This document shows positions 6,397-27,813 of a stretch of DNA of 64,000 nucleotides, piece by piece. Position numbers and translations under genes: made by a program. Positions within the stretch are counted from its first letter, which is position 1. Each line of letters opens with the position of its first letter. Source of the stretch: Candidatus Thorarchaeota archaeon (GTDB taxonomy: Archaea; Asgardarchaeota; Thorarchaeia; Thorarchaeales; Thorarchaeaceae); NCBI GenBank assembly GCA_048882485.1, contig JBHLRP010000002.1, positions 6,527 to 70,526 on the forward strand, read 5' to 3'. The notes under the pieces were generated by a model. That model was given only the letters and a program-made list of their open reading frames with translations. It was not told where the DNA came from and made no database searches.

Positions 6397-6951
6397 TTGA
6401 AACTTGTAGATTTGGCAAAAACTGCTCTTAGAATACTACAGGGACGTGGGGAGGAAGGGATTAGGAGCGATGAATTAGCTGAGCAACTTAATACTCCCAA
6501 ACGGCGAATCTATGATGTAATAGCTGTTCTAAAAGCTCTAGGACAAGTATCAACAAAACGTCGGTTTGATGGAACTACTATCACTTGGATCGATCAAACC
6601 CGAAATCTGGTTTCAAAGGCTCAGTATGATGAGATTGCTGCAAAATTCGAGGAGGCAGATTGTGAGCGAATCGACCTTCAGCTCCAGCTAGTTCAATTGA
6701 AGGAGCAGCTTCGAATAGCAAAGACAAAGCTGCGCAGAGACGTCAAGGCAGTCGAAGCCGCAGATAGGACGGAGTTCGACACGACGCAATTGCGAGTAAG
6801 AGCTCTCTCACATTCAGGGATAAAGAAGGTTAGTCAATCTGGAATTGATGTAGTTATTGAGGCCCATGAATCTGGCATAGTAGTAGATCCTACCGTAGTA
6901 GAACCTGATGAGAACGAGCTACTTCTACGGAACCTTCAGCAGAGCCTATAG
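6397..6951 (+). CDS. E2F/DP-like winged-helix protein with coiled coil
   Basis: LAEQL..PKRRIYDVIAVLKALG..(W) matches the E2F/DP RRxYD signature; heptad region follows. Confidence 0.7.
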   Translation: MKLVDLAKTALRILQGRGEEGIRSDELAEQLNTPKRRIYDVIAVLKALGQVSTKRRFDGTTITWIDQTRNLVSKAQYDEIAAKFEEADCERIDLQLQLVQLKEQLRIAKTKLRRDVKAVEAADRTEFDTTQLRVRALSHSGIKKVSQSGIDVVIEAHESGIVVDPTVVEPDENELLLRNLQQSL

Positions 6952-7432: not shown

Positions 7433-8575
7433 ATGGAGTGGATTGGGCTGCAGCGAGCCAAACTTGACGTTGCCTTTGTGGTCGATACGACCGGTTCAAT
7501 GAAAGATGACATTCGTGCAGTGAAAGACAGCCTGTTTGACATTGTCGACAAAATAACTACACGAACCAAGGAATTGAGTATACGATTCGCGATAGTTTCC
7601 TACCGTGACCATCCTCCTCAGGATCACTCCTATGTGACGCGGATTTTCGATTTCTCAGAACGTATCAAGAATGTACATAGGGAGATATCGAATCTTAATC
7701 CTTCTCAGGGCGGTGATACGCCGGAAGCTGTCGGTGATGGACTATTTGATGCTAGGACAAAGCTCTCATGGGATGAACATGCCTACAAGGCATTGCTGCT
7801 TGTTGGTGATGCACCACCGCATGGCCGAAAGTATAACTCCCTAAGCGATGATTACTTTCCGGACGGGTGCCCCAAAGGTCATGACCCTCAGAGGGAAGTG
7901 CAATCTCTCAAGAGCCGATACGGGGAAACTGTATTCATTTTCGTTTGTGGCTGCAATCCTCTTGTAAAAGAATCATTCAAAAGCATCGCAGATTCCGTAG
8001 ATGGAGGGCGATACTATTCTCTGCAGGAGGCACACGAATTACCGGAAGCTATTCTTCGAATCCTTGAAGGGGTAAGCGATCTTATTGAATCTGATCGAAG
8101 AGTTCTTTCCTACTATGAGGCAAATGACGGGACATTTGACATCGGGGAGGCCGCAGTTCAGCTTGGATTGGAGATTAGAGATGTAAAGACATCGCTCTCA
8201 CGGCTCCTTGAGCTCAGCAAAATTGCTAGATGGCCAAAGGGACGTCCGCTTGCAGCATCAAAGATGGGAATGAGTGTTGAGCTTGGTGAAGTCCCTGACG
8301 CTCTGATCGCAGGAAGACCATTCATGTATGACTTGAGAGTGAAGAATCCGAGTCGAGCTGTCATAGGAATCCGTCTTATCGTCACATTGATCACGCCTGA
8401 AGGAGTGTCTGAGGTCACGAATGAGAAGCATGAAATTGGCCCCAATTCTGAACGACTTATTGAGTCGCAGCTCACGCCGATGACAGATGAAAAAGGTAAG
8501 GCAAGTATTCGTGTTGAGGTCATGTATGGGTCCAAATCCCTTGCGACTGCGATATACAATACCCGTCTGTATTAG
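7433..8575 (+). CDS. vWA domain protein with C-terminal winged helix and beta-sandwich domains
   Basis: MIDAS DTTGSM, YRDHPPQD, GGDTPEAV, GDAPPHG. Confidence 0.8.
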   Translation: MEWIGLQRAKLDVAFVVDTTGSMKDDIRAVKDSLFDIVDKITTRTKELSIRFAIVSYRDHPPQDHSYVTRIFDFSERIKNVHREISNLNPSQGGDTPEAVGDGLFDARTKLSWDEHAYKALLLVGDAPPHGRKYNSLSDDYFPDGCPKGHDPQREVQSLKSRYGETVFIFVCGCNPLVKESFKSIADSVDGGRYYSLQEAHELPEAILRILEGVSDLIESDRRVLSYYEANDGTFDIGEAAVQLGLEIRDVKTSLSRLLELSKIARWPKGRPLAASKMGMSVELGEVPDALIAGRPFMYDLRVKNPSRAVIGIRLIVTLITPEGVSEVTNEKHEIGPNSERLIESQLTPMTDEKGKASIRVEVMYGSKSLATAIYNTRLY

Positions 8576-8589
8576 GTGCGTGGCTGGTC

Positions 8590-9717
8590 TTGGAGCTTGA
8601 TGCTATCGAAGGACGAAGCCAGAGAGGAATCTCATTTGTGCATCCCTCGGTTACCACGATTTCCACGGCTCAATTGAGCTATGAAGGCGTGACAGTTTTC
8701 ACTGACATACGCACTTCAGAGAGAATAGCATCTGGCTCCATTGTAATCGATTCCAGAATATTCAATGAGTTGGGATGTGAAGAGCACAACGAAGTTACCT
8801 TGACAGCTGTTCCTGAGGTGATACCTGACTCCAGTGAGCTAACTCTGCTTGTTGATTCTCTGGAAGGACTAGAGAATACAAAAGCTGTGGATGCCTTATC
8901 CAGACGAATCGATGATCTCAAGGATCATCTTGATGGTCTGATTGTACGAATGGGGCAGCGGATTGATATTACTGAGCTTGGCATAGGATTGATCGTGGAT
9001 GACTCAAAGCCCGTTGCGGAACAGCTGCAGGCATCTAGGATTATGTGGGATCAGCTTTTGAAGGTCAATCTTGCGGCGCAAGCTGAATTTCCTTCTTGTT
9101 TCAATTTATGCTGCGTGGTAGACGTAGGAGCATCATCTGGTATTGAAGATGTAGAGATGGAAGATGGCACTGCAGGAATCACACGATTCGAAGCTAGTCT
9201 GTGTGCAATTAAGGCCATACTATCCTCTGCCAAGGAGTGCGATGACGCTTTGGTCTCAGCTGTTGCGTTTGGTGAGTCGTCCGTAGAATTGGCAAGTAGC
9301 GAAGGTAGCATACTTCAATTGAGTTCAGAATCGTATCAGCCAATCCACGATTGGCTTTGTGAACAGAATAATGACCGCAATGATGAACCATCAAATCCTG
9401 GGAGTGCCATGGATTTGTCTATTGGAGTAGCACACCAACTGAAATCGCGGAATGGACTCCCTGCCCTTGTGATATTCGTATCTGGTGGTGCATTCACTTC
9501 AGGTCGCAATCCGGTCATTACAGCAAGAAGAATGGGAGCGAGCGAAGGCATCTTTGTTACATGCGTGGCACTGGGAACCGAATCAGACATGGATTTAATG
9601 CAAGCTATTGCGGTTGCGGGTAAAGGGAGTCTGATTCATATAGACAAGTTCAAAGAAATTACATCAAGGATTGAGAGAATATTCGATAGGATTGATAACG
9701 AGGTTGTTGACAGGTGA
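8590..9717 (+). CDS. Cdc48-N-like + vWA protein with degenerate MIDAS
   Basis: FNLCCVVDVGASS; TRFEA; VIFVSGGAFTSG; alignable by eye to 15622..16902. Confidence 0.7.
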   Translation: MELDAIEGRSQRGISFVHPSVTTISTAQLSYEGVTVFTDIRTSERIASGSIVIDSRIFNELGCEEHNEVTLTAVPEVIPDSSELTLLVDSLEGLENTKAVDALSRRIDDLKDHLDGLIVRMGQRIDITELGIGLIVDDSKPVAEQLQASRIMWDQLLKVNLAAQAEFPSCFNLCCVVDVGASSGIEDVEMEDGTAGITRFEASLCAIKAILSSAKECDDALVSAVAFGESSVELASSEGSILQLSSESYQPIHDWLCEQNNDRNDEPSNPGSAMDLSIGVAHQLKSRNGLPALVIFVSGGAFTSGRNPVITARRMGASEGIFVTCVALGTESDMDLMQAIAVAGKGSLIHIDKFKEITSRIERIFDRIDNEVVDR

Positions 9718-10955
9718 ACGATGAAGCAATAACCAGACTTCAAGCAATGTATAGCAGTAGCGAAGTCCTTGGATATCTAATCTCGCAACTTCCAGAAAAG
9801 GGACTCAAATCGGGATGGGTTGAGGAAGGGCTGCTAGCAAAAGGACTCCAAGAGTCTTCAACTACGAAATTCAACCAAGAGAATTACATTGAACCGACTC
9901 ATGAAGCTATACATTTGATGGCTGATCGCGCAATGGATGCTCCTGGAAGAACTGGCATCTTCATTCTTGGAGAGCCGGGGCTGGCTTCATCAAAGCTCGT
10001 CGTTGTGCTATCAGACGATGAACGCGCGCGAGGGCGAGTCAAGCTGGCCACAACTATCTGGCTTCGTGACTATTCCCCACACGAAATCATTCGCCTTGTC
10101 TTGAAGTATATTCTTGGAGAGAAGCTCTCTCCGGAATTTGAGGAACCGCATCTGGATTATATTGAACAATTGAGAATAGACGCCATAGAATGGGAGGCTG
10201 CTGAAGTCCTTAGTCTGACTATCCCCGGGAGAAAATTCAACACTTCAATCTGGATAAAACAAGCAATTGAACTACCAGAGGAGGAATACTCAATTGCCCT
10301 GCGATGTGGGAAGTTGAGACAGATTCCAGCCTTTGCACTTCTCTTCAGCCGTTGGCTTATTGATTTGCCGATCTTTGAGGATTTGAATCTGGGAGTAGCC
10401 GCGGCTATTCTTAGAAAGGAGGACAGGGTGGAGCTAGCTATCTGGGATAATCCACGAGAATTAGCTACCTTCGCCATACTACTGGATACAGATCTTGAAG
10501 ACATTACACGCAAATTCCTGGTGCCTGCTTGGTTCGAGAGGGGTGACAGAGTTCATCCTCCAACAAGAACTAGAGAGGTGGTGGTGAGCAAACCTGGAGG
10601 TATAATTGAGGGGGTGAAGAAGTCCTTCACCTTTGTAGAACCAGTCAAAATAATGCTTAGTGATGAAGAGAAACAAGCAGCTCAATCTCTTACGAAATTG
10701 GTTGATGACTTAAGAGCGCGCATGGAGAAATTCCCAGTTGAGGAAATCATTGAAAGGCTGGAGATTGTTGAGAACCAATCCCAATTACTTGCCAAGCAGC
10801 TGAATTCATCCATGATGACAGGTGATTTTGGAGGAGATGAAGGTGTAGCTCTAGGGATGCTGCGTAACAAGCTTGGACATCTGCTTGATAGACTTGAAGA
10901 GCTATCTGCCAGACTGGGAAACATCGAGGAACGTGCCTCTCAGCTCATCGAATGA
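9714..10955 (+). CDS. hypothetical protein; candidate longin/uDENN (FLCN/SMCR8-like) N-terminus, C-terminal coiled coil
   Basis: GTGA overlap with upstream gene; VVVLSDDERARGRVKLATTIWL motif; heptads at the C-terminus. Confidence 0.55.
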   Translation: MNDEAITRLQAMYSSSEVLGYLISQLPEKGLKSGWVEEGLLAKGLQESSTTKFNQENYIEPTHEAIHLMADRAMDAPGRTGIFILGEPGLASSKLVVVLSDDERARGRVKLATTIWLRDYSPHEIIRLVLKYILGEKLSPEFEEPHLDYIEQLRIDAIEWEAAEVLSLTIPGRKFNTSIWIKQAIELPEEEYSIALRCGKLRQIPAFALLFSRWLIDLPIFEDLNLGVAAAILRKEDRVELAIWDNPRELATFAILLDTDLEDITRKFLVPAWFERGDRVHPPTRTREVVVSKPGGIIEGVKKSFTFVEPVKIMLSDEEKQAAQSLTKLVDDLRARMEKFPVEEIIERLEIVENQSQLLAKQLNSSMMTGDFGGDEGVALGMLRNKLGHLLDRLEELSARLGNIEERASQLIE

Positions 10956-11242
10956 AGTCGGATGTGAATCCTGTGCCAGAGAGTCCGAGAACCCCTCCTG
11001 CGGTAGGCCGGGTAGAAGAAACACTGACCATAATTGAGGAAATTGATGCGCGTTTAAATGATGTCAAAAAGATTCTATCCTTTATAGATGCGGAATCTAG
11101 GCGGCTAGAGGGATTGAGTATTCGTGACCATTTCAATACTATCGAGGAAATTGGCAATACAATAGATGCAATTGAAGTTGAAGTCAATGTGCTGGAAACC
11201 CGAATAGCTACAATTGAATCTCTCAAAAAACATCAGAAGTAG
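10952..11242 (+). CDS. small coiled-coil protein
   Basis: ATGA overlap with upstream gene; heptad pattern. Confidence 0.6.
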   Translation: MKSDVNPVPESPRTPPAVGRVEETLTIIEEIDARLNDVKKILSFIDAESRRLEGLSIRDHFNTIEEIGNTIDAIEVEVNVLETRIATIESLKKHQK

Positions 11243-13886
11243 AACGGTCAAGGTTTCCCATCACTAGTTTCTCAATAACATTTGCTAAGTAGCCCTCAAA
11301 AACATCAGCCGCAAAACTGGTCATGTGGTGCACTCTTACATTGATGTTTCTGAAATCAGGACTGAGGCTCTGAGCATCTTCTCCTAGGCTAAGAATCTCT
11401 ATTTGGTATCTATTTCTTGATGCTATTGCTTGGAGGAATGGTTTTGCATCTTCGAAGGTTTCACTGCCCAGATTCGCCATCAATACAATTAATGTTGGCA
11501 TTTCAGAACCGAAGTCCTCTAGGAACTCGGCTATAGCTCTAAATGCGCCTGATAACCTGGCTGAACCTCCGAAATCACGGGAACTATCCAATAGCGAATA
11601 GAGGATTGACACCAGAACATCCTCAGATGCAAAGTCATTAGAGAACTGCATTCTCGTCTGAATGATCTCTCCCTTTTGAATTGAGAATTTGGTGGGGGTT
11701 TCTCCAATTGTGACGATGCCCAGCGACCCATCAGTCCTATTCCCCGACAGACTCTGAATCAACAGCAAAGCTGCAAGTGTCGCCATATCCATTCTAGTTA
11801 TTGAGGTTCCAAGCTTGGATAGGAGGTCTTCAATCTCCGGCACCATCGAGGACAATGCGCCCAATCTTCGCTTTAAAGACTGCACGGTCTTGAGTTCTAT
11901 GTCTTGCACACCCATTCCACTATCCGTCGATATGGCTAGAACCATGTTGAATGGTCTGAACATCTGTGAAGGTCTGAATTCCAATGAGTCGCCAGTTAGT
12001 CTAGCTAATTCTCCGGGTTCCAGAGGTGGAACAGAGTGCGTGAGTGTCATGCAAGCGCCAGCATCACGACCATTGATCCAGATTGAAGTTCCCTTGCCCA
12101 AGATTTGGCCATTCAATGTCTTTTGCAGTCTTTCTGCATGCAGATATGCATATGACAGTAGTTCCGCTCTTGAGAATCCCTTAGTCGAGTCCAAGGCAAA
12201 GACAGCTTTCTCTAGGGTCTTAATCTTCCCTTCGCTCTTGACCATGTCCACAACCGATTCTTCCGAGAGTCCAAGAATAAGTGCATCATCTTTTGAAACA
12301 CAGACTGTTCGTTGAGGACATCCTGCATCTTGTTCGACATGCCCTGCCCACCACTGGCCTTCCATGGCATCCATGCCCAACACCAGGTCTCCATTTGCTA
12401 CACCCATAGCACGCATATCGTCTTCTGACATCAGCAGCGTTCCATTCTTAGTGCCTGACGTATTTAGCTTGAAATGCAGCGCAGAAAGAATCTCCTGCAT
12501 ATTCTTCACTTTCAGGCATTCTAGGAGGGCATGATTGAACCGGTTTATATCTGATGGCGACCGTAGAATGGGACCATCTGATCTGGCTGTTGATTGAACT
12601 AGAGCTTTGAGAGGGTCTACCACTCTATCCGGTGATTTTCTTGTGAGAGAATTTCTCCAACCGGAAACCGTGAGGGAGTCATCAGGCTCGTTAAGCAACA
12701 CAACAGTGTTGGCGGTCTTTGATATAGGATTTCTTACAGTTAGAATCGAATCATTGAGATGGATTTCGCCGCCTTCGTTTGCAATCATGTAATCAAAAGA
12801 CTCGATAATTTGGACCTTTCTGGCCGCGAGGATTCTAAAGATTCTTGACATCTCACTGAGTGATGCCTTTCCGATCAATCCTTCTGCAACCACACTGGAT
12901 GTGTTGTCCACATACTCGTAATAAGGAGGCCTTGGCGGTAACATACTGAGAAGGTTCCCTGCAAGAATCCTCTGTAGCTCTTCAGGAGTAGCTCCCAAAC
13001 TATTACTCAGAAGGAAGCTAATGATTTCTGTAATGCTATCGCCTTTCTGAGTTTCAGGATATGCACTCGCAAATACAAACTTCTTGGACCAATCAGAATC
13101 GTCTGTTGAGTTGCGAAGGTCTTTGATTAATGTTGACAATGAGGTTATAGTTGCACCAGCAAGCAGTAATCTGGAGTTTGGAATCTGAAGCAGCCGCATG
13201 ATCTCAGAGTTCCACGCCTTATGATCTCGAACCAAGAAAAGTGTGGGTGGAGCCTCAAGTCCAGCATCCTTTAGGAAGACCAGCCATTCCATTAATAAAT
13301 TTAGGTCCTCCTTCTTTTCCATCTCAATTAGCAGCGGCAACTGGGATTTGAAATAGCTCAGGAGATCTGGGCGATTGTCGTTTCTCAACGACTCTTTGAG
13401 GTCCAAAGCGGTCATTACCGCACCCCAGCCATTTCGACCTCGGCTGCCAAATCTCATGTCTTGAAGTCGATATAATCTTGAGCTAAAGGGTGGAGTGACA
13501 CTCCAGTTCTCAGTGCGTGTGATATTATTCCTACGCTGGTCAAGGGGCAGTTTCGTATCTCCCAGGCCTAGAAGTGGTCTAACTGCGAAGAGATCGGCAA
13601 ACCAGCCTAGTTCTGAAGAGGAAACATCGTGATATAGTTCGCTAAGAATAGGAGGTTTCTTGAGGTAGGCATATGCTCTTCGTGGGACATATTTGAAAGC
13701 CTCAGGATATTTGCTTGAGTAATCGAGTAGCTGATTCTCAACCATATCATAGAATGAGAGCACCCTATTCGGGTCAAAGATTCTGCTTTGAGAACCGGCC
13801 TGAATCTCTCCTAGTTGTATCAGCGCATCAACCACTAGGAAGCGCTTGACCTCGCCCTCTGCAGTGTCTTCAACAACAAGCATCAA
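11223..13886 (-). CDS. fusion of degenerate amidohydrolase, Cdc48-N-like and degenerate vWA domains
   Basis: Collinear similarity to 14028..15536 (VVDALIQLG vs IVDAHHHMG; LQRILAGN vs AQRILGGN) and to 15622..16902 (PFNMVLAISTDSGM vs PFNAVLCIDTSGSM). Confidence 0.75.
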   Translation of the reverse strand: MMLVVEDTAEGEVKRFLVVDALIQLGEIQAGSQSRIFDPNRVLSFYDMVENQLLDYSSKYPEAFKYVPRRAYAYLKKPPILSELYHDVSSSELGWFADLFAVRPLLGLGDTKLPLDQRRNNITRTENWSVTPPFSSRLYRLQDMRFGSRGRNGWGAVMTALDLKESLRNDNRPDLLSYFKSQLPLLIEMEKKEDLNLLMEWLVFLKDAGLEAPPTLFLVRDHKAWNSEIMRLLQIPNSRLLLAGATITSLSTLIKDLRNSTDDSDWSKKFVFASAYPETQKGDSITEIISFLLSNSLGATPEELQRILAGNLLSMLPPRPPYYEYVDNTSSVVAEGLIGKASLSEMSRIFRILAARKVQIIESFDYMIANEGGEIHLNDSILTVRNPISKTANTVVLLNEPDDSLTVSGWRNSLTRKSPDRVVDPLKALVQSTARSDGPILRSPSDINRFNHALLECLKVKNMQEILSALHFKLNTSGTKNGTLLMSEDDMRAMGVANGDLVLGMDAMEGQWWAGHVEQDAGCPQRTVCVSKDDALILGLSEESVVDMVKSEGKIKTLEKAVFALDSTKGFSRAELLSYAYLHAERLQKTLNGQILGKGTSIWINGRDAGACMTLTHSVPPLEPGELARLTGDSLEFRPSQMFRPFNMVLAISTDSGMGVQDIELKTVQSLKRRLGALSSMVPEIEDLLSKLGTSITRMDMATLAALLLIQSLSGNRTDGSLGIVTIGETPTKFSIQKGEIIQTRMQFSNDFASEDVLVSILYSLLDSSRDFGGSARLSGAFRAIAEFLEDFGSEMPTLIVLMANLGSETFEDAKPFLQAIASRNRYQIEILSLGEDAQSLSPDFRNINVRVHHMTSFAADVFEGYLANVIEKLVMGNLDRSTSDVF

Positions 13887-14027
13887 TTCATGCTCCCAGA
13901 AACTCTATTCTCCATTTTCTCACGTTTGGATATATGCCTGACGCAGATGCACTTCGTGCTTCTGTCTATGAAGGAATACTTTATCTCTCACAAGTCAGTA
14001 GGCTCCACTACCCGAGGCCGCATTTAG

Positions 14028-15536
14028 ATGTTGGTTGTTCGAGCACTTCAAGACATCCCAGAGAAAGGAATCAGAAAAGGAGATGAGTACAAACTATACA
14101 TTGTCGATGCTCATCACCATATGGGCAAAGAGAAGAGCCATCGGAATACTCCTGGCGGGGCATATGAGTTCTATGCGCTTCTATGGATCGAGATGCAGCG
14201 AATGGCTGAAAGAATGATGAATGACGACGCATTATTGTATGAGCCTGTCAGGATTGAGACACCCGAGTTGCCGGAGAGGATTTTTACAGCCAAAGAGAAG
14301 TGGGCACGGATGAATCATGGCTGGCTGGTCGACCGAACGATTGCTTTTCCTTACACAGATGACTACTCCAAGAGTCGGTCTCCTGATGAGCCATCGTTTT
14401 ATGTATCAAACGACAGGATTGCAGCTTGGACATCACGTGCCCCTCATTCATCTAGGCTTATTGGTTTCGCTCGAGTGGATCCAAAGGACGCCCTGAGTGG
14501 GACACCTGATTTACCAATTCGAGAGCTTGACAGAGCTATCGGAGAGCTCGGACTTAGGGGCCTGAAGCTCCATCCTCTTGCTCAGTTATTCTTGGAAGAT
14601 ATCGAGTCCGATTATATGAAGGCTGTAGTTGCTAGAGCAGGAGAGCTAGGCATCCCGGTGATTCTGGACACAAGGAACATCCGGACAGCTGAGAGAATAA
14701 GAGACCTAGTGGTATCAATGAGGGAGGATGATAGATATGCGAATGCCATGCGGGGACTGAGTATCATCCTCGCACACTGTGCTATGAGTCCAGGAAGTAC
14801 CAAGCTCTATGAAATATTGCGGGATCCTGCTATCTATGGAGAAACCTCTACACTCCATGACAAGGACGTGCCTGTTCTCTTCAGAATGTCGAATGATCGG
14901 CTAAACATGCCTACGGGGAGTTGGTCTGATCACCTGCTTTTTGGGACTGACTACACTTTTCTCTCGGTACAAGCTGTTGAACTCGTACTTCATCTTCTGT
15001 CTCGCGATTTTCCAGGTGGATTAGAAGACGCTCAGAGGATTCTAGGCGGAAATGCGTTATCCTTGGTTAATCGTCCATTTGGGACAGATAGAGCTATTGA
15101 GCGTCCTCCACAAGCAGTCGTCTGCATTGGTTGCGAAAGCGATGCAATAGTCACCCTTGAAGATACTCTAATGAAGCTGATTGCTGGCGAGGGTTGGGAT
15201 ATCACTTCCGTAGATTACATGATACCACCAAAGCACACTTGGCCTAAAATGCAATCCATCAGATTAGGCGGTCATAACGGCATTTACTTCGACTCGTATG
15301 TTATTTCTCTTGGCGTCCGTGGCGGCAAAACAGAATTGCATCTCTGGGTCAAAAGAGGCCCTGGTACCATAACAAGCTGTACCATTCTCGGTACAAAGGG
15401 CGAAGATTCTCTTGATAGCCTTGAGTTTGGGACTCAGAAGATTAATGCCACGTTCACCAAAGCGATTAATTCAAATCCCATCAAGAGCAGGACGGCATTA
15501 GACCTTACTAGAGAGGTTTTAAAGTTACTAGCGTGA
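14028..15536 (+). CDS. metal-dependent amidohydrolase (Amidohydro_2 family) with C-terminal extension
   Basis: DAHHH, RLIGFARVDP, GLRGLKLHP, ILAH, LFGTDY, RILGGNA. Confidence 0.85.
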   Translation: MLVVRALQDIPEKGIRKGDEYKLYIVDAHHHMGKEKSHRNTPGGAYEFYALLWIEMQRMAERMMNDDALLYEPVRIETPELPERIFTAKEKWARMNHGWLVDRTIAFPYTDDYSKSRSPDEPSFYVSNDRIAAWTSRAPHSSRLIGFARVDPKDALSGTPDLPIRELDRAIGELGLRGLKLHPLAQLFLEDIESDYMKAVVARAGELGIPVILDTRNIRTAERIRDLVVSMREDDRYANAMRGLSIILAHCAMSPGSTKLYEILRDPAIYGETSTLHDKDVPVLFRMSNDRLNMPTGSWSDHLLFGTDYTFLSVQAVELVLHLLSRDFPGGLEDAQRILGGNALSLVNRPFGTDRAIERPPQAVVCIGCESDAIVTLEDTLMKLIAGEGWDITSVDYMIPPKHTWPKMQSIRLGGHNGIYFDSYVISLGVRGGKTELHLWVKRGPGTITSCTILGTKGEDSLDSLEFGTQKINATFTKAINSNPIKSRTALDLTREVLKLLA

Positions 15537-15621
15537 CGGACTAGCTTGCACAATTCTTTATAATGAATCTGAAGAAGTGTTAAACAACTTACAATAGGAG
15601 GAGAATGACATCACCAAGACG

Positions 15622-16902
15622 GTGAAACTGGAGATTGATGATGGCGGAGACCTTCGAGGATACGCCGTTCTCAACCCAAAGACTGCTAAGAAGCTGAATG
15701 CTGAGCTGGGATCTATTGTTGTGTTTGAGGATCCAGCATCATCATTCTGGGGTGCTGCTCAAATAAGAATCAATGATGGTGTTCCGGCTGATAGAATCAG
15801 AATTGATACTCTGGTCCTTGAAGCCTCGCTCTTAATGGAAGGCGACACTGGCATTGAAGTGTCTCTGTATGATGAGGACATGATTGCCCTAGAATATGTG
15901 GAATTCGGGCTCAAGCCCCTCAGCGAGGATTCCAGTACGGAAGATCTTGTCACGCGAGCTGCTGAACAAGTCGCATCTTTAGAGAAGCTCATAGGTGGGC
16001 GTTTAGTATACCCGGGAATGTCATTCATTTGGCCGGAGTTGAACGTGAAAGTCGAGATAATGACAACTCGTCCATCTCTCTCTGGCAAGAGATTCGCCAA
16101 ACTCGCTTTTGAAGCTCTTAAGGAACGAACTGGTTATCAGTTCAAGACTATAGGAATTGCTACTCCTTTCAATGCAGTTCTATGTATTGATACCAGCGGT
16201 TCGATGAAAACAACTGATGTGCCTGTTCAGGATATAGCTCATGCACGTGAAGGTCTCAAAGATCTCGCCGGGGATAATCCAGAGGTCCAAGCATTTCTAG
16301 ATCGTTTCAAGGAAGGAACAAATGTCAGTAGAGGTGAGGCTGCAGCGATGGCAGTTCTCCTGTACCTTGCAGAAAAGGTTGGGAGAGGCTATGGCGAGAA
16401 GGTTGGAGTTGTGACTTTCGAGAAGGAGGTCACTGAGATGACTTTTTTGAGTTCGGAAACGGGAGAGGTCCAACCCTATGTTGAGTGTACCGGAAGAGAG
16501 AAGGCTCTTGGTCTTCAAATCATAAGCACTCACGTGGTGGACAAAATTGAGGAAGGAGGCACTCTAACAGATATGGGGACTGCTCTCGTACGAGCTGCAG
16601 ACATCATCAAAGCATTTGGAGACCCAACCAAGCCGACAATGGTCATCATGATGACGGATGGAATGACAACATCTGGCCCTGCTCCACTCAAGGTTCTCAA
16701 GGATCGATTCGCCGATACAACAAGTCTTGTGATTTATACAATCGGACTTGGCGAACGCAGCGAGATTGACGAGGAATTGATGCTCGCGATGGCCCAGTAC
16801 GGTAATGGGACATATCGCCATGTTGACAATATGAGAGATCTTCTAGAGTGGTATGGCAAGCTGGCAAGTGAATTTGCAATTGTCATACGCGGATCGGAAT
16901 AG
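15622..16902 (+). CDS. Cdc48/NSF-N-like (double-psi barrel) + vWA protein, intact MIDAS
   Basis: MIDAS DTSGSM, T in LTDMG, MTDG; N-terminus AVLNPKTAKKL...GSIV...RIRID...GD resembles Cdc48-N; own TATA (TTTATAA at 15557). Confidence 0.8.
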   Translation: MKLEIDDGGDLRGYAVLNPKTAKKLNAELGSIVVFEDPASSFWGAAQIRINDGVPADRIRIDTLVLEASLLMEGDTGIEVSLYDEDMIALEYVEFGLKPLSEDSSTEDLVTRAAEQVASLEKLIGGRLVYPGMSFIWPELNVKVEIMTTRPSLSGKRFAKLAFEALKERTGYQFKTIGIATPFNAVLCIDTSGSMKTTDVPVQDIAHAREGLKDLAGDNPEVQAFLDRFKEGTNVSRGEAAAMAVLLYLAEKVGRGYGEKVGVVTFEKEVTEMTFLSSETGEVQPYVECTGREKALGLQIISTHVVDKIEEGGTLTDMGTALVRAADIIKAFGDPTKPTMVIMMTDGMTTSGPAPLKVLKDRFADTTSLVIYTIGLGERSEIDEELMLAMAQYGNGTYRHVDNMRDLLEWYGKLASEFAIVIRGSE

Positions 16903-16909
16903 TTATGAA

Positions 16910-18205
16910 CTAGGTGTGTTCCAGAGCCTGAACAAGTGCCTTCAGAGTGTCCAAATCCATCTCATGGATTTGCTCCTCTGGGATGCCGGCCAGCATTTCA
17001 TCAGGCACCCCTGCGAGAACTTTTGCCTTCTCTTCGCCGTATTTCTCGGTGAAGTCCTGAAGTCGACGTTCGTCATCACTCATGCTGGCGGTGGCAGCAA
17101 GCTCCTCTAGCTCCTTGACAGTCATTCGCTGCAGTTTACCATCGCCAACTGAATCGACTACTTCTGTGGGAAGCGTTTCAATTATTGCCTCTTTCTTCGA
17201 TAACTTCTTGGAAAGATCCTCTTCAGGAGCTGAGGTTTCAGTTGTTGATGCAATCAGCGCTTCAAGTTCCTCATATGTCAATGTCTTGAGAACATCGTCT
17301 GAAACAGATTCCCTCACTTCATCTGGAATCATCTCTATAAGTTCCTGCCTGCTTGGCCCTTTCTTCTTTCTGCGGACTTTTTTGACCTTCCTGACCTTCA
17401 CTGCTTTCTTCTTAGGCTTCTCTTTGGGCTTCGCAGCGGGCATCGCTGTTGTCAAGGAGGTGACCAATTCTTTTGCTGTATCGGGAGTGAGTCTTCTCAG
17501 GTCCTCCTCCGGTAGAGTTTCGCGAAGCTCATCTGGTAATTCACTAAGAATCTCTTCGACCTCTGGAGAAACACCTGCAGTCTTTCTCGGGATTTCATCA
17601 GAAGGAGCCGCTGCTGCAGCTTCGGCTACTCCTGGCAATACTATTGGCGTTTCTTCCAATCCCTTGATGAAATCTGTAACATCGATTTCAATCTCGAAGT
17701 CCTTTGCTCGCCAGGCTAAGTATCTATCAATGGCATCGGAATCTACATTCATCTTACTCAATCTCGAACGTATAACAGTGTCCTGAATGTCAGGAAAGCC
17801 AGCGATAAGATCTTCAACATCACCTGAATCAAGTCTTGCCCAAATTGGCCCATTTAAGAGCTTGGAGAGTCCTGCAGCACAATGCGATCTGACCCAAGTA
17901 TTGATGTCTTGGAGTCCTTTCAGTAGATTAGGAATTGTTCTTGGCTGATGATAAAATGCTAGAGCTTGGGCGGCTGCAATTCTAACACTGTCATCCTCAT
18001 CGGTCATTGCTTTGATTATGTCAGTCACAATGGTGGGATCGCCAACATCAATTGCTGCTAGAAGAGCCCGCTCCCTCACGACGTCGGAGGCATCAGAAAA
18101 TGCAGTAACTAGTGCCTTCTTCACCCTTTTATCCTTTGAAGCACGGATTCCGACTTCTTCCGTTTCGAACTCCAGTAGCAGACGTCTTGTTTCAGACAAG
18201 AGCAA
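16910..18205 (-). CDS. HEAT (PBS-lyase-like) repeat protein with four C-terminal ~35-aa helical repeats
   Basis: D...VRERA, D.DDSVRIAAAQAL, D.NTWVRSHCAAGL repeats; L/I-P-D/T-E repeats. Confidence 0.8.
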   Translation of the reverse strand: MLLSETRRLLLEFETEEVGIRASKDKRVKKALVTAFSDASDVVRERALLAAIDVGDPTIVTDIIKAMTDEDDSVRIAAAQALAFYHQPRTIPNLLKGLQDINTWVRSHCAAGLSKLLNGPIWARLDSGDVEDLIAGFPDIQDTVIRSRLSKMNVDSDAIDRYLAWRAKDFEIEIDVTDFIKGLEETPIVLPGVAEAAAAAPSDEIPRKTAGVSPEVEEILSELPDELRETLPEEDLRRLTPDTAKELVTSLTTAMPAAKPKEKPKKKAVKVRKVKKVRRKKKGPSRQELIEMIPDEVRESVSDDVLKTLTYEELEALIASTTETSAPEEDLSKKLSKKEAIIETLPTEVVDSVGDGKLQRMTVKELEELAATASMSDDERRLQDFTEKYGEEKAKVLAGVPDEMLAGIPEEQIHEMDLDTLKALVQALEHT

Positions 18206-18382: not shown

Positions 18383-19213
18383 ATGGGAGCCAGCAATTTA
18401 CGCCCCGATGATTTAGGGGCACGTCGAGTCTTACTATTCTCCTTGACGCTCTTTCTGATTCATCTTCTTTACGAAACCATAGGGATTGTCACAGCATCAA
18501 TGGATGAGGTAACTAGAGGTCTCATCAGCACAGTCCAATTCTTCGGTCTGTATCTACTGATGTATTTTGCAGTGATACTCTTCTTGCGTTGGGAGCGAGG
18601 TGGTGATGTAACTAGTTTGGGACTGCAGACTGAAAGCAAAACGTTGCATCATCTCATCGTAGGTGGGGTAGCTGGGGCTCTGGCAGCAGGGCTGGTTTAT
18701 TTGATTGCATTATTCTCTGGAGGTGACCTCCGACCTGCTATTGATATAACTGGGGACCTGATTGCGAACCAGATCATATTCACAATCCCTGTAGCTCTCT
18801 TCGAGGAGATAGTCTATCGCGGCTATCTATTGACTAGGATGGAGCTAGTTGTAGGACGTTCATTTGCCATTCTAGGCGGTTCGCTCTTGTTTGCATTACT
18901 CCACTTCGGCTGGTGGCTTCCATTGGGTACTATTCCAATACATCTGATTCTGATATTCACATTCAACCTATTCTTGGGTGGAGTGGTTCTAAGCTACAGC
19001 TATTTCTGGTCTGGCAAACGGCTGTGGGTTCCAATCGCCTTTCATTATGCTTGGAATATTGTAGCATTCGTCATGTTTCCAGTTTACCCTCTAGAACCCG
19101 TGAACATGGTTGAGATATTTCAGATCGAATGGGGAATCACGACAGTCCTTGGTTTTCTATTTGGCTTATCACTGATCTGGGTGCTCCTGAAAGAAGTTTT
19201 GAAGAATAAGTGA
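18383..19213 (+). CDS. CPBP (CAAX/Abi) intramembrane metalloprotease
   Basis: EEIVYRG, FALLH, HYAWN motifs. Confidence 0.9.
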   Translation: MGASNLRPDDLGARRVLLFSLTLFLIHLLYETIGIVTASMDEVTRGLISTVQFFGLYLLMYFAVILFLRWERGGDVTSLGLQTESKTLHHLIVGGVAGALAAGLVYLIALFSGGDLRPAIDITGDLIANQIIFTIPVALFEEIVYRGYLLTRMELVVGRSFAILGGSLLFALLHFGWWLPLGTIPIHLILIFTFNLFLGGVVLSYSYFWSGKRLWVPIAFHYAWNIVAFVMFPVYPLEPVNMVEIFQIEWGITTVLGFLFGLSLIWVLLKEVLKNK

Positions 19214-19246: not shown

Positions 19247-19948
19247 CTAGTGCTGATTAGACTCCCCAGGGGCCTCGTGGCCCACAATCATTGTCAAGCC
19301 GGTTATCCCGCGGACAGATACACTCTCTCCCTTACTGATAGGCGGTCCATCTGTTCTGGCTCTCCAAATGGCTGCACCTGCTTTCACCTTGCCAGTCGGA
19401 TTGATGTCTGAAATGGCAATTATATCATGCATCTTATCATACTCCGAGAATTCGGGCCACTTGTCATAGCCCCGAAGGAATATGCCATAGAGCACCATCA
19501 ATCCCATGACCGTTCCTACCATGAGATAGACGGTAATTGTCCTTGTTGGATCAATGAGCACTGATAGCAGAATTGCCACGCCATAGAATGGAAAGAGTTT
19601 GCATGTCACTTTCGCATCTATAAATCCGCCGTCAACGAATCCTCCTCCCCCCGTGAAAATAGCGAGCATCAGGAAGAGTAGTCCAGCTATGACGATTAGC
19701 TGTGTGATATTAAATGAGGTTTCTGGCCTGAAGAAGACCTGCATGGCAAAGAGAATCAGCACGATTGGAACTATGACCTGAGCCATTGCCTTGCCACTTG
19801 CTGGTTCAACTGCCACAACCATCAGGGTCAGCACAATTGCCACAAGAATCAATCCGACAAATGGATCAAACAGGACATATCCAATGAGGACACTGAGCAG
19901 TGACATCAGCAATAGCACGACGAAGACCTTAATCCATGCATCCATCAT
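19247..19948 (-). CDS. NfeD-family membrane protein
   Basis: Multiple TM helices plus C-terminal OB fold (P.GKVK.G.IWRA...I.KGE.V.V.GI.GLTM.V); adjacent to SPFH gene. Confidence 0.85.
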   Translation of the reverse strand: MMDAWIKVFVVLLLMSLLSVLIGYVLFDPFVGLILVAIVLTLMVVAVEPASGKAMAQVIVPIVLILFAMQVFFRPETSFNITQLIVIAGLLFLMLAIFTGGGGFVDGGFIDAKVTCKLFPFYGVAILLSVLIDPTRTITVYLMVGTVMGLMVLYGIFLRGYDKWPEFSEYDKMHDIIAISDINPTGKVKAGAAIWRARTDGPPISKGESVSVRGITGLTMIVGHEAPGESNQH

Positions 19949-19968: not shown

Positions 19969-20808
19969 CTAATCTTCATCAGCCATTCCCTTGTTCTTGG
20001 GCACTCGTAGTCCACCAGTGCCTGCAGACATCGCAGCTGCTGTAGCTGTGGTTACACCCACTTCAGGTATGTTTGTAGGCACCATGATTATCAAGTTCGC
20101 GTTCTTTGATATCTCCTGCATGATATTCCAAGTTCTGAGGACAAAGCCAACATTGGATTCTTCGTACCTCTTAGCTGCTTTCAACATATTCTCCGCAGCT
20201 TCAAGTTCAGCTGTTGCCAGAGTGATTCTTGCACGACGCTCTCTCTCAGCTTGTGCCTCCCTACTCATCGCGTCTTGTAGTGCTGCTGGAATTACAACGT
20301 CGCGGATTTCCACAGATGTGACCTTAACACCCCAGTGTTCAGTTTTCTCATCAATAAGCTCCTGCAAATGTTCCGCTATCTTGTCTCTTTCTGCTAGAAG
20401 TTCATCAAGTGTGACCTTTCCAGTAGTTTCTCGCAGAGTGGTTTGAGCAGCCAATTCGACAGCAATAGTGTACCTTTCGACACTGAGAATCGCTTTCTCC
20501 GGGTCAATCACTCGAAAGTACATGACTGCGTCTACAACTACCGGAACGTTATCCTTCGTTAGAGACCTCTCTGTCTTGAAGGCATAGGTCAATAGCCTGA
20601 GGGAAACCTTCATTGCAATCTTGTCAAGAATTGGTGTGACCCAAGTTATACCAGGACCCTTGATGCCTTGGAACTTACCGAGTCGAAGAATCGCAATGCG
20701 TTCCCATTCTCTGAGGACCTTGATTCCACTAGCAATAAACATCAGTATGAAGAGGAACACAAATCCGATGAGGAGTACCGTTCCCCAATATGGATCAATA
20801 AACTGCAA
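19969..20808 (-). CDS. SPFH/stomatin (slipin) family protein
   Basis: ER..ILRLGK...GPG, LTKDNV, AQTTLR, WGVKVTSVEIRD, AERERRA. Confidence 0.95.
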   Translation of the reverse strand: MQFIDPYWGTVLLIGFVFLFILMFIASGIKVLREWERIAILRLGKFQGIKGPGITWVTPILDKIAMKVSLRLLTYAFKTERSLTKDNVPVVVDAVMYFRVIDPEKAILSVERYTIAVELAAQTTLRETTGKVTLDELLAERDKIAEHLQELIDEKTEHWGVKVTSVEIRDVVIPAALQDAMSREAQAERERRARITLATAELEAAENMLKAAKRYEESNVGFVLRTWNIMQEISKNANLIIMVPTNIPEVGVTTATAAAMSAGTGGLRVPKNKGMADED

Positions 20809-24372: not shown

Positions 24373-27300
24373 TCAGTACACTGTGAATTGCTTTTGGTCC
24401 TGCCGAACTGCCCTGTCTGGAAGCGCCTTTCCATCCTGAGTGATAACGGCATCCAGGTAGAATCCAGTGACCATATCAACAGGGGGTGTAGTCCAATGGA
24501 AGGTGATTTCCTCTTCGCCCCCATCAACATCGGAAAGCGAAGCCTTGAACTGTTTCACTATCTCTCTTCTTGACATAACCCTGAGAATTATCCCTAGGTC
24601 TTTCATGCCTTCTTTCAGACCGCATATCTTGGCACCGAGGTCCACCTTTGTAAGCCTCGCGACAAGTCCGGGTATATCCTCACCTGATTTCTTTCGAATC
24701 CAGAGATCGACATCAAACACTGGGCTCTCAATAGCCTTGACCTTAAATCGCTCCTTTCTCTCCATAGTGAGTCTGCCGCACTTCGCGATAGCCTTTAGAT
24801 GTGCCGTACTCATCTCTGCATTCAGTGGCACGCGCAGCTTTATGGGCAGAATCTTGCTCTGACCCGGCTCCAGAGTTCGAGAGCTTTTAAGAAGTTGATC
24901 GGTTCCTCCAATGGACTCCAATTCTATTCTGATTTCATACTTCAGTTTCTTACCTGTGATATTAGTCAGATGAAGGACAGGCCTGATTTCCTCGTCTGGC
25001 AACACAAACGCAGGCACTCCTGCAAAGCTCATGCTTGCAATCTGTCCTTCAGGACCATCGGATAGGGCTATCTCAGTGGATCTCTGATCAATGACTGTGC
25101 CGTCATATGTCAGCTTTGCAGTTAGGGTTACGCTAGCTGGTTTCTTCTTCCCTTTTGGCTCTGGAATTGTGACGGGACCAAATGCCAATGAGAGATTCTT
25201 GCTTTGCTTTACCGTCTGCTCAAGGATAGCTTGCTCATCCTCGTCTGGGAACTTCAGCGAAACTACCAATCCAGCTGGTCCACCTAGTTCTGTGTTGCGT
25301 CGAACCCTCAACCATCCAGCAATCTTGCCTCCAATGTGAGCTGTATCCGGAGCGCGTAGTGAGTCAATATTGAGCAGAACCCCGAGGCGATCGATTCTGA
25401 AACGAGTGGTTTCTATGGAAGTGACTTCCTTCCCCTTGTCCACCAATGAGGATACAATTACACCTGAACGGTGTGACAACTCTTCTGATTCGATTGGTGG
25501 CACTCGCCACGTAAATCTCACAGTCGCCTCAGTAACCTCCTTAATGCCAAATCGAGCTATTTCAAGGTGCTCGCCCGAATCAGAGCGAAACTCGACTATA
25601 AGAAATGCAGATTTGCTCATAGAATGTTTCTTTGATGAGAGTTCAATCTCGCCAACAACTAAATCTCCAGGATAATAGACTCCCTTAATGTCTGCATCAA
25701 ACAGAAGTTGAGGGCCTTTCCTAGCGAATCCAATATAGAATGGCTTTGACATCACTGAGGTGATTAGCTCTTCTTCAGCATCTACAAGATTAAGCCGCAA
25801 TATGCATCGTTCAACGCCATGTGAAGCATCAGTTGGGACTATGAGGTCTGGGAGGCTTGTTTGGTCGAAAAGCAATGTGTCCAGACTCTCTACATGAAGC
25901 TTATCCGTTACTATAGCAAGTACTCGTTCTTTTCGCGGAGATATGACTGCTATGTCTACTGTTACATCGGTTGCTTCTGGGAAGTTGGTTTCAATGTCGC
26001 CCACATAAAGAACGGGCGTCTTCCCATCAGAGAATTGTGTCGTGGTGCCGGGTTTGATGTTGGCCTTCATCCAGTATGTGGTCAATGTTCCGGTCAGGTG
26101 TATCTGTTTCCCGGCTAGAGTGATTGTCACAATAATGTTGTACGCAGTAACATCCTTGGTGGTCTGGAAAGCAATTCGTTCGGTATGAATCTGACCTGAG
26201 CTGATTTCTTGAACGGTTCGTATACCCTCGTGGACCACATTTCGGTCTGAATCTTCTATAGCAAAATCCACTCCAAGGTTGAGGAGAGGACGATCACCAG
26301 TATTCCTGAGTGAAACGACAAATTCAGCTTCCTGCCCTGCAAAAAGCTGCTCTATGTCTGTTAGAATCTCTGGTTCGAGACCAGTCCACCAGCACAACCA
26401 TGTAGGCAATTTTGGTGTTCCTTCAAGTGGGTCATATACCCAGTTAGTACAGCATTCTCTCGTGATGTCAGCCAGACTTTTCAGAAGGACTACCATATTC
26501 ATCTCCGATTTTGCGTAGACATCCAACTGGAAGTCTGCGCTGGTAGTTCTTGGTGGTACGACCTCGCTCCCAAACACCGAAATAAGAATGGACTGCATAA
26601 ATGGATTATCAACGACATCCAGCTCCTCCAACTCATCTCGAATCAGATATAGCATTGATACTACAGCATCGCCCATGAAGCGGTTTCTTCTTTTTTTCTC
26701 GATGGCACCGTCGTCATCTATAATGTGGTTGTAGATTTGCATGAATTCGGGATTATCGGTTTCAGTGCCCGGTCGAAACGGACCCCACAGTCCCGCCGAA
26801 ACAGATGATTCACGGTTTGCTGCAAGTGATTTCGCCCCAGCATTAGGTATCTTCTCTCCCCGTTCCACCATTCTCTTGGCCTTCAAAGCAAGAGCTTGAA
26901 GCAATAATGCAATGCCAATCCTACGTGGTATTGACAATTGTGTGTCAAAGACTCGCAGTTCAACCGTCCCCAGCCTATGAAATGGATACATATCGACCAT
27001 TCTGGCATAACTACGATTCACGTGCCTCGCAAAGGCTTCCTTATCAGGTTGTACCATATATGGAATGAGTTCAAACTCATTTGTAGGTCCAAGCTGGGTC
27101 GTATTTCTAATGAGTCTAATTGACCTCTTGCATCTTGGCGCCCTTGTCCGTCCCTCCTCATCAATTTCAACAACATCAGTCGGTTTCTTATTCTCGAATG
27201 GAGAGTTAACGGAGAGGGCAATGAGATGAGGGATGAAATTTCGAAGCATATTGTATACAGCTATTCTTACCTTGCCATCTACATCTGGTCCCAGAATATG

Positions 27301-27813
27301 ATGATGCTCTCCAAATGAGAGATTCTTGAGATATTCCTGAGCAGGATTCAATCCAGTTGATATGAGAATCGCACGAGCTTCCTTGGGGAGGGACTCATAG
27401 GAGATGGCAATGAGTGTTTGTATCCACCATGCCAGCTCTTCAATCGAAGTGCAGGGCGGAGTTGCAATCTCTAGTATCCAAGTCAGACTCGTAACATTGG
27501 GATCATGTCCAAGAAGTGTAAATTCGGCCGGCTCTCCCTTTGGATTATCGTATACAACCACCACCCTTGAGCCGCGTTCTCCTTCCTCTGTCTGACTGGA
27601 ACGCCTATACTTCTTTTTAACAGAATCCACTCTAGCTGTTTGAATCCTCTTATCAAGCAACACCTTGGCATTCGAGATTAGCTTGTCAAAGATGGTGAGT
27701 ATGTCTTCACCTCGAATCCACGAACCATCCTTTTTGATCACTTGAAGTTCCACTTCGATTCCGTGGACAAACGGCAGGTGCATCTCACTTTCTCTAGGAC
27801 CTGTATCTATCAT
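24373..27813 (-). CDS. GCS2/YbdK-type carboxylate-amine ligase fused to multiple beta-sandwich domains
   Basis: GIEVELQ, LEIATPP, GEHHHI, ALSVNSPF, GTVELRVFD; the ~660 C-terminal aa are beta-rich repeats (e.g. VSLRNTG, LHLTNITG). Confidence 0.8.
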   Translation of the reverse strand: MIDTGPRESEMHLPFVHGIEVELQVIKKDGSWIRGEDILTIFDKLISNAKVLLDKRIQTARVDSVKKKYRRSSQTEEGERGSRVVVVYDNPKGEPAEFTLLGHDPNVTSLTWILEIATPPCTSIEELAWWIQTLIAISYESLPKEARAILISTGLNPAQEYLKNLSFGEHHHILGPDVDGKVRIAVYNMLRNFIPHLIALSVNSPFENKKPTDVVEIDEEGRTRAPRCKRSIRLIRNTTQLGPTNEFELIPYMVQPDKEAFARHVNRSYARMVDMYPFHRLGTVELRVFDTQLSIPRRIGIALLLQALALKAKRMVERGEKIPNAGAKSLAANRESSVSAGLWGPFRPGTETDNPEFMQIYNHIIDDDGAIEKKRRNRFMGDAVVSMLYLIRDELEELDVVDNPFMQSILISVFGSEVVPPRTTSADFQLDVYAKSEMNMVVLLKSLADITRECCTNWVYDPLEGTPKLPTWLCWWTGLEPEILTDIEQLFAGQEAEFVVSLRNTGDRPLLNLGVDFAIEDSDRNVVHEGIRTVQEISSGQIHTERIAFQTTKDVTAYNIIVTITLAGKQIHLTGTLTTYWMKANIKPGTTTQFSDGKTPVLYVGDIETNFPEATDVTVDIAVISPRKERVLAIVTDKLHVESLDTLLFDQTSLPDLIVPTDASHGVERCILRLNLVDAEEELITSVMSKPFYIGFARKGPQLLFDADIKGVYYPGDLVVGEIELSSKKHSMSKSAFLIVEFRSDSGEHLEIARFGIKEVTEATVRFTWRVPPIESEELSHRSGVIVSSLVDKGKEVTSIETTRFRIDRLGVLLNIDSLRAPDTAHIGGKIAGWLRVRRNTELGGPAGLVVSLKFPDEDEQAILEQTVKQSKNLSLAFGPVTIPEPKGKKKPASVTLTAKLTYDGTVIDQRSTEIALSDGPEGQIASMSFAGVPAFVLPDEEIRPVLHLTNITGKKLKYEIRIELESIGGTDQLLKSSRTLEPGQSKILPIKLRVPLNAEMSTAHLKAIAKCGRLTMERKERFKVKAIESPVFDVDLWIRKKSGEDIPGLVARLTKVDLGAKICGLKEGMKDLGIILRVMSRREIVKQFKASLSDVDGGEEEITFHWTTPPVDMVTGFYLDAVITQDGKALPDRAVRQDQKQFTVY

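Follow-up and report, generated by a model that had tools for sequence, protein, structure and literature searches.

What brings together, in one tightly packed archaeal locus, a metal hydrolase, a dead fused copy of that hydrolase and a set of von Willebrand factor A (vWA) proteins, most of which carry a Cdc48-type N domain? The question is raised by a stretch of Candidatus Thorarchaeota archaeon DNA (assembly GCA_048882485.1, 90.5% complete; contig JBHLRP010000002.1, positions 6,527-70,526, forward strand). This stretch of 64,000 nucleotides is called the window, and all gene coordinates are window positions. Eight genes, g1 to g8, lie tightly packed at 7433-18205 in alternating transcription units, and with a ligase gene farther along they make nine open reading frames (ORFs; Table 1). 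A first-pass annotation of the same DNA had seen in g1 to g8 a possible forerunner of the GATOR1 or FLCN regulators of small GTPases. Our analysis points elsewhere. We think it rather probable, though by no means secure, that the locus is a Thorarchaeota-expanded form of an Asgard-wide module in which a GCS2-type carboxylate-amine ligase, an Amidohydro_2-type hydrolase (g6) and an ATPase-less Cdc48N-vWA protein (g7) carry out adaptor-guided making and breaking of amide bonds.

The hydrolase and the Cdc48N-vWA protein

The g6 product matches Pfam Amidohydro_2 (3.6e-13), and residues D27, H29, H31, H182, D214, H250 and D308 are invariant in it and in 16 orthologs from distant Asgard families. 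These residues supply the HxH motif, the two further histidines and the strand-8 aspartate of the Amidohydro_2 pattern and, judged by them, g6 is catalytically intact. A search of PDB sequences with the hydrolase profile found no close solved relative (best E 6e-3), which places the g6 family far from characterised Amidohydro_2 enzymes.

The g7 product joins a Cdc48-N fold to a vWA domain with a metal ion-dependent adhesion site (MIDAS) and has no ATPase: the chain ends with the vWA domain at residue 426, with neither AAA+ D1/D2 domains nor Walker motifs. Pfam, profile and structure searches all recognised the N domain. Pfam CDC48_N matches 14 of 37 family members (best 1e-8) and the related Molydop_binding barrel matches 9. 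Against the PDB, the family profile found Cdc48 N domains (E 9e-4) and Cdc48-derived designed double-psi barrels, together at 3.7e-5 to 1e-3, as well as the N-terminal domain (NTD) of DEPDC5 at 6.8e-3. The AlphaFold2 model of g7 (predicted local distance difference test, pLDDT, 88.9) matched the isolated p97 N domain (5epp_A) with a template modelling (TM) score of 0.70. Among orthologs the MIDAS ligands D190, S192, S194, T316 and D346 and the EKVGRGxGEK insert are invariant or nearly so, and both are lost in g2 and g5. The vWA part of g2 is recognisably related to g7 (BLASTP 2e-6) and to g5 (1e-3), making g2 a second dead Cdc48N-vWA paralog.

The g5 gene connects the hydrolase to the adaptor. 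Residues 470-805 of its product match g7 1-346 (BLASTP 1.4e-14), residues 266-368 match g6 299-399 (4e-4), and all five g5 orthologs have lost the catalytic histidines and D308 and kept structural residues. Since both parts are homologous to their neighbours and both the catalytic and the MIDAS residues are gone, the g5 product is a fusion that is dead on both counts, derived from an ancient joined copy of g6 and g7 and persisting as a pseudoenzyme. Such a fusion speaks for a joint role of g6-type and g7-type proteins. When the Cdc48N-vWA parts are placed in a tree, g5 copies from families f1, f2 and f7 form one clade (support 91/82) and g2 a separate, Thorarchaeota-only clade, placements that are tentative given the long branches.

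Structure prediction points to a direct contact. The g6-g7 complex reached a median ipSAE (interaction prediction score from aligned errors) of 0.64, compared with 0.00 for the best control. By rough calibration, that mark is attained in 58 of 80 complexes with solved structures and in 2 of 110 mismatched pairs. Contact agreement between runs was at least 75% and partner pLDDT at least 77. On the g6 side the predicted interface consists of the loops directly after H31, H182, D214, H250 and D308, which form the active-site mouth; on the g7 side it comprises N-domain residues 7-10, 39-42, 63-75 and 98-106 and vWA insert residues 207-218 and 254-258. As modelled, g7 would cover the active-site face of g6, making contact by its N domain and by the vWA insert peculiar to its family. 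The MIDAS ligands lie outside the predicted interface, and so would stay free for a third party.

A ligase, a hydrolase and an adaptor inherited together

The ligase matches Pfam GCS2 and the YbdK structures 1r8g and 1tt4. It measures about 470-600 amino acids (aa) in Lokiarchaeia and families f24 and f28, and about 980-1400 aa in Thorarchaeota, f6, f7, f19 and f22. Because length differs in this way by lineage, the long tail is accessory. It is possibly made of beta-sandwich repeats (a weak CARDB lead); Atlas feature searches with the tail gave scores of 0.76-0.78, which is noise level.

Phyletic distribution was assessed in one set of 301 Asgard genomes from 30 families. Cdc48N-vWA orthologs occur in 187 of these genomes, and all three gene families occur in the same 10 families, within which (197 genomes) the adaptor is present in 179, the hydrolase in 173 and the ligase in 170. 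The ligase is absent from all 103 genomes that represent the remaining 20 families; matches there to Cdc48N-vWA and to the hydrolase are weak and at paralog level. An exhaustive search for Cdc48N-vWA (E <=1e-10) gave 81 clusters at 50% identity, and the clusters looked up came from Thor-, Heimdall- and Sigyn-type metagenome-assembled genomes (MAGs), records deposited as Odinarchaeota and one Korarchaeota MAG.

Gene order tells a similar story. Among 26 Cdc48N-vWA loci sampled from ten families, a g6-type hydrolase gene lies within 10 kb in 16 and a GCS2-type ligase gene in 14. The trio is directly clustered in 12 (L014, L015, L017, L031, L035-L039, L046, L047 and L049), and in several families the hydrolase gene adjoins or overlaps the ligase gene. 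A second genus (genome G024) has preserved the cluster in full, a second family (G025) retains g1, g5, g6, g7 and g8, and the g6-g7 pair recurs in distant families. Orthologs of g1 sit in the cluster in G024 and G025, and those of g8 adjoin it in G024, G025 and G019. The neighbourhood is thus conserved in related genomes, and its conserved core is the trio. Our literature search found no link of GCS2, amidohydrolase and vWA in archaea, and the ligase, hydrolase and Cdc48N-vWA genes are apparently an undescribed set common to about one third of Asgard families.

Several lineages have their own versions of the adaptor. The Lokiarchaeial proteins carry extra double-psi barrels on proline-rich linkers; at five loci of this type (L042-L045 and L019) the ortholog has about 690-760 aa, including two further barrels and a long linker rich in proline. 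A related-locus search from one family alignment returned only such Lokiarchaeial-type fused orthologs. The neighbourhood kept between Lokiarchaeial genera includes a Roadblock/LC7 protein, an ACT-domain protein, an actin homolog and an 869-aa protein without a family match. A Heimdall-type locus (L031) packs three Cdc48N-vWA paralogs, a hydrolase, a 493-aa ligase and a 241-aa coiled-coil protein into 11 kb, so paralog expansion with coiled-coil partners recurs beyond Thorarchaeota. On two contigs (L032, a Sigynarchaeota record, 8757-10454, and L033, 5098-6810) the Cdc48N-vWA protein ends in a ubiquitin domain that closely resembles a neighbouring free ubiquitin, beside a ubiquitin/E1/E2/JAB operon. 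In family f22, a 193-aa GTPase-like protein (L037 3471-4052; GTP_EFTU 4e-5) and a 304-aa protein without a family match are encoded on the same strand ahead of the hydrolase-ligase-vWA genes. ORFs of matching size occupy this position at L038, but not at L039, which comes from the same genus and has different ones.

Proposed making and breaking of an amide bond

Joint inheritance of a ligase and an amide hydrolase suggests that one amide bond is both made and broken. In the explanation we favour, the ligase would form, and the hydrolase cleave, an amide bond on a carboxylate-bearing and probably macromolecular ligand. The MIDAS of vWA domains binds a ligand carboxylate, and for this reason the free MIDAS of g7, together with its Cdc48-N domain, may recruit or read such a ligand. 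The adaptor could bring the ligand to the hydrolase, or could tell its free from its amidated form. A macromolecular substrate is favoured by the giant ligase tail, the retained dead scaffolds and the ubiquitin-fused Sigynarchaeota relatives. The Thorarchaeota extras (g1, g2-g3-g4, g5 and g8) would then belong to a larger assembly as non-catalytic subunits, serving as scaffold or in regulation.

Several observations weigh against this explanation. The GCS2 match is weak, both in Pfam (1.5e-4) and against the PDB (about 2e-3). Neither partner lies within 10 kb at 10 of the 26 sampled Cdc48N-vWA loci, and in Lokiarchaeia the adaptor gene is 40-50 kb from the adjacent hydrolase-ligase pair, on the same contig. 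Because kin genomes are not independent samples, the support is smaller than the phyletic counts suggest; even so, the co-occurrence pattern spans deep branches. The g6-g7 prediction used self-built alignments, for which the calibration holds roughly. The proposed substrate and chemistry would follow from family membership only, and a role of the ligase-hydrolase pair in small-molecule metabolism is equally conceivable, FluG, which unites the same two enzyme types (PMC6478659), being an example.

Taken in that last direction, the ligase would produce and the hydrolase split an amide metabolite, of the gamma-glutamyl type or another, with the vWA protein as a regulatory or scaffolding subunit of the hydrolase. 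We consider this unlikely. In its favour, GCS2/YbdK relatives, to which the Asgard ligase has its family matches, are small-molecule carboxylate-amine ligases; Amidohydro_2 enzymes act mostly on small molecules, and bacterial gamma-glutamylation pathways offer a parallel. The overlapping or abutting hydrolase and ligase genes would suit such a pathway as well. What a metabolic pathway accommodates poorly is the size of the ligase, a giant of about 1000-1400 aa in most families whose long tail is non-catalytic, a hydrolase tied to a MIDAS adaptor by fusion and by predicted binding over its active-site mouth, the retention of dead paralogs as scaffolds, and Sigynarchaeota relatives fused to ubiquitin.

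A DEPDC5-like layout, probably without a GATOR1 module

The nine best PDB matches of the g7 model in Foldseek are all DEPDC5 or its yeast counterpart Iml1/Sea1 (9xzy, 9o5e, 8fw5, 9v0j, 7t3a and 8ae6), with E values of 3.7e-14 to 3e-11 over 420-490 columns, TM scores by query of 0.35-0.43 and a root-mean-square deviation (rmsd) of about 10 A. The N-D1 portions of p97, Cdc48 and NSF follow (about 1e-10; TM 0.27-0.33; rmsd about 20 A). The DEPDC5 NTD is described as similar to one domain of Sec18/NSF, and the SABA domain as similar to one domain of Sec23 (PMC8534245), in agreement with what the first-pass annotation had presupposed. The N-terminal half of DEPDC5/Iml1 and g7 are alike in that a Cdc48/NSF-type N domain is followed directly by a vWA or Sec23-trunk-like domain, without an ATPase, and the match indicates the same two domains in the same order and partly similar arrangement. 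It does not show that the vWA domain is specifically akin to SABA. The g7 vWA domain taken alone is nearest to classical MIDAS vWA domains. An Atlas shape search with g7 returned its own Asgard family (TM 0.84), otherwise vWA-only matches and no IML1 cluster, a global search that says little on this point. The shared two-domain architecture is real; it is not evidence of GATOR1-like function. It is possibly ancestral to DEPDC5.

The first-pass annotation had gone further and proposed a proto-GATOR1 or FLCN-like regulator, in which the Cdc48N-vWA protein is a DEPDC5-like scaffold, g3 a longin-type GTPase-activating protein with an arginine finger, and the enzyme a nutrient sensor. Its DEPDC5-like layout stands, and its GTPase reading falls; we now regard a regulator of this kind as very improbable. 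No product matches IML1 or DEP in Pfam at E <=0.1, and a search of the genome with the IML1 hidden Markov model (HMM; PF12257) found nothing at E <=10. In g7, the IML1 signature and the SHEN, DEP and C-terminal domains that distinguish DEPDC5 were not encountered. The NPR2 HMM had no match in the genome and, in contrast to GATOR1, the genome tests yielded no NPRL2/3-type longin subunit with a conserved catalytic arginine.

The proposed activating protein fares no better. Only 30 homologs of g3 are detectable, nearly all in Thorarchaeota. The D-x-x-A-R-G loop was not confirmed as a functional motif; it reads DDSSDPG, DLKESPSGG or DGTKKPN in other members. Its arginines vary even within Thorarchaeota, and D101 alone is invariant among 16 orthologs. 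The g3 model has a pLDDT of 62 (below 50 for residues 1-66), and Foldseek against the PDB found nothing below E 1e-3, the top rows being hot-dog folds, EspG and PCNA. The g3 profile matched only coiled coils in PDB sequences and Pfam, sequence searches brought up no longin signal, an Atlas feature search scored at noise level (0.76-0.78), and the second half of the alpha/beta region is weakly Roadblock-like.

A GTPase partner is likewise missing from the neighbourhood. The genome has 13 Gtr1_RagA-like small-GTPase matches, none of them on the contig of the cluster, and the 26 sampled neighbourhoods share no recurrent GTPase gene. The GTPase-like gene upstream of the trio in f22 is sporadic, found at L037, with similar-sized ORFs at L038 and different ones at L039. 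Sporadic neighbours of this sort could be due to chance, given the reported abundance of GTPases, longins and Roadblock proteins in Asgard archaea (not counted here). The conserved partners of the adaptor are the ligase and the hydrolase, whereas g2-g3-g4 are family-specific. In the literature searched, the one paper that names both Asgard archaea and DEPDC5 reports NPRL2-like longins and no DEPDC5 relative.

Possible unfoldase and maturation roles

The Cdc48-N fold might instead mark an adaptor like Ufd1 or Rpn10 that delivers clients to an unfoldase or the proteasome. The genome does encode two bona fide Cdc48/VAT ATPases, and the Sigynarchaeota orthologs with C-terminal ubiquitin beside a ubiquitin/E1/E2/JAB operon fit such a role. 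A link to Cdc48 in the source genome was considered and rejected, both Cdc48 genes being on other contigs; the first-pass annotation had correctly remarked that neither a Rag-like GTPase nor a Cdc48 ATPase is encoded in the window. HMMs for ubiquitin and for E2 (UQ_con) have no match in this 90.5%-complete genome, and the 26 sampled neighbourhoods have no AAA+ gene in common, all of which makes delivery to an unfoldase very improbable. Least probable of all is that the vWA protein loads or remodels the g6 metal site in the manner of CbbO, NorD and CoxE, maturation and activation factors that act on their own enzymes: the predicted interface does cover the metal-site face of g6, and VWA_CoxE matches 11 of 37 family members weakly, but such systems need a MoxR-type AAA+ partner, none of which is linked at the sampled loci, the MIDAS lies outside the predicted interface, and the co-inherited ligase would be left unexplained.

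Anatomy of the Thorarchaeota locus

Table 1. The nine ORFs of the locus, in window positions.
Gene	Position	Strand	Product
g1	7433..8575	+	vWA protein, 380 aa, intact MIDAS (DTTGS...T...D)
g2	8590..9717	+	Cdc48N-vWA paralog, 375 aa, degenerate MIDAS
g3	9714..10955	+	413 aa; tandem alpha/beta region ~63-285; C-terminal coiled coil 317-412
g4	10952..11242	+	coiled-coil protein, 96 aa
g5	11223..13886	-	887-aa dead fusion: pseudo-amidohydrolase (~1-465), Cdc48N domain, degenerate vWA
g6	14028..15536	+	Amidohydro_2-type metal hydrolase, 502 aa, extra C-terminal domain
g7	15622..16902	+	Cdc48N-vWA adaptor, 426 aa, intact MIDAS (DTSGS...T316...D346), EKVGRGxGEK insert
g8	16910..18205	-	HEAT-repeat protein, 431 aa
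ligase	24373..27813	-	GCS2-type carboxylate-amine ligase, 1146 aa; beyond the 7433-18205 cluster of the first-pass annotation

Much of the first-pass description of the genes themselves is borne out. All eight packed ORFs are where it had placed them, g4 having been left out of its count of products. The two intact (g1, g7) and two degenerate (g2, g5) vWA domains agree in Pfam, BLASTP and MIDAS columns, and Pfam CDC48_N, the PDB profile and structure matches support a Cdc48-type N domain in three proteins. Its enzyme/pseudoenzyme pair is seen in the catalytic residues kept in g6 and lost in all five g5 orthologs. Translational coupling of g2 to g3 is in keeping with a GTGA overlap of stop and start, and g3 and g4 share an ATGA. 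The g8 product had been called a HEAT protein with ubiquitin-binding motifs (UBM): the HEAT part holds (Pfam HEAT_2 1.8e-13), and the UBM label is not confirmed, with no such Pfam match at E <=0.1.

Pfam recognises vWA in g1 (VWA_4 4e-13, VWA 2e-10) and g7, Amidohydro_2 in g6 and HEAT in g8, and gives no match for g2, g3 or g5; no product is above an NCBIfam family cut-off. The DTTGS motif of g1 is read in the translation, and its C-terminal ~170 aa have no family match. Residues 260-285 of g8 form a Lys-rich stretch, and at residues 223, 293, 345 and 400 begin its four acidic repeats (LP[DT]E), each about 26 aa long. In G025 the g2-g3 pair is replaced by a 463-aa coiled-coil protein, which was rejected as a homolog of g2 or g3 for having no similarity beyond the C-terminal coiled coil. 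ORFs of 88 and 105 aa stand at the position of g4 in G024 and G025. A bacterial-type promoter and terminator scan performed at chance level, its model not being applicable to archaea.

Genes flanking the cluster are partly conserved as well. A 184-aa winged-helix protein of the E2F/DP family (6397-6951, + strand; Pfam E2F_TDP 2e-9) is encoded next to the cluster in G024, G025 and G019 too, and could be a regulator of the cluster or a neighbour kept by synteny. Beyond it lies the gene for a 444-aa protein (4808-6142, - strand) with a weak CobW/HypB/UreG-type P-loop match (9e-5) and 81-83% identity between genera, far above that of the cluster genes; it adjoins the E2F-like gene in G024 and G019. 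On the other side, an Rce1-like CAAX protease gene (18383-19213) is followed by an NfeD-SPFH/stomatin pair (19247-19948 and 19969-20808), and in G025, too, the CAAX protease gene abuts the HEAT gene.

Implications and comparison with known systems

The module is found in Thor-, Loki-, Heimdall- and Sigyn-type lineages and in records deposited as Odinarchaeota, and our literature search found no description of an Asgard ligase-hydrolase-vWA module. Should the ligase and hydrolase have protein substrates, the archaea most closely related to eukaryotes would possess a reversible modification system that is new. Should g7 and DEPDC5 owe their common architecture to descent, the scaffold half of GATOR1 would have a prokaryotic origin. 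A bolder proposal combines the two: Asgard Cdc48N-vWA proteins would be the ancestors of the NTD-SABA half of DEPDC5/Iml1, with the ligase and hydrolase writing and erasing an amide-linked protein modification that the MIDAS reads. We put this forward as speculation that is quite unlikely to hold in full. Were it true, the lineage closest to eukaryotes would have a new reversible signalling system, part of which was later recruited into the GATOR1 nutrient-signalling scaffold.

The g7 family shares with the N domains of Cdc48/p97/VAT/NSF and with Ufd1 the double-psi barrel and second subdomain. It differs in that the N domain is joined to a vWA domain and not to AAA+ rings, and in that N-domain residues contact a TIM-barrel hydrolase in the predicted complex. 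Another archaeal vWA protein, ArnB of Sulfolobus, acts with the FHA/zinc-ribbon protein ArnA in archaellum regulation. Unlike g7, ArnB has no Cdc48-N domain; the structure of its complex is titled 'ArnAB complex an archaeal ortholog of the Sec23/24 core motif' (PDB 8s05).

FluG is an Amidohydro_2-type hydrolase fused to a carboxylate-amine ligase (PMC6478659). The pairing of hydrolase and ligase is the same, with adjacent or overlapping genes in Asgard archaea in place of a fusion, whereas the FluG ligase is glutamine-synthetase-like and not GCS2, and FluG is without a vWA or Cdc48-N partner. Compared with YbdK, the Asgard ligase is three times longer and its match is weak. Compared with PafA and Dop of pupylation, the eraser here would be an amidohydrolase TIM barrel and not a Dop-type ligase fold, and no small tag protein was identified. 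What the Asgard pair would have in common with both YbdK/GCS2 and PafA/Dop is an ATP-dependent carboxylate-amine ligase together with a possible reverser, a write-and-erase logic.

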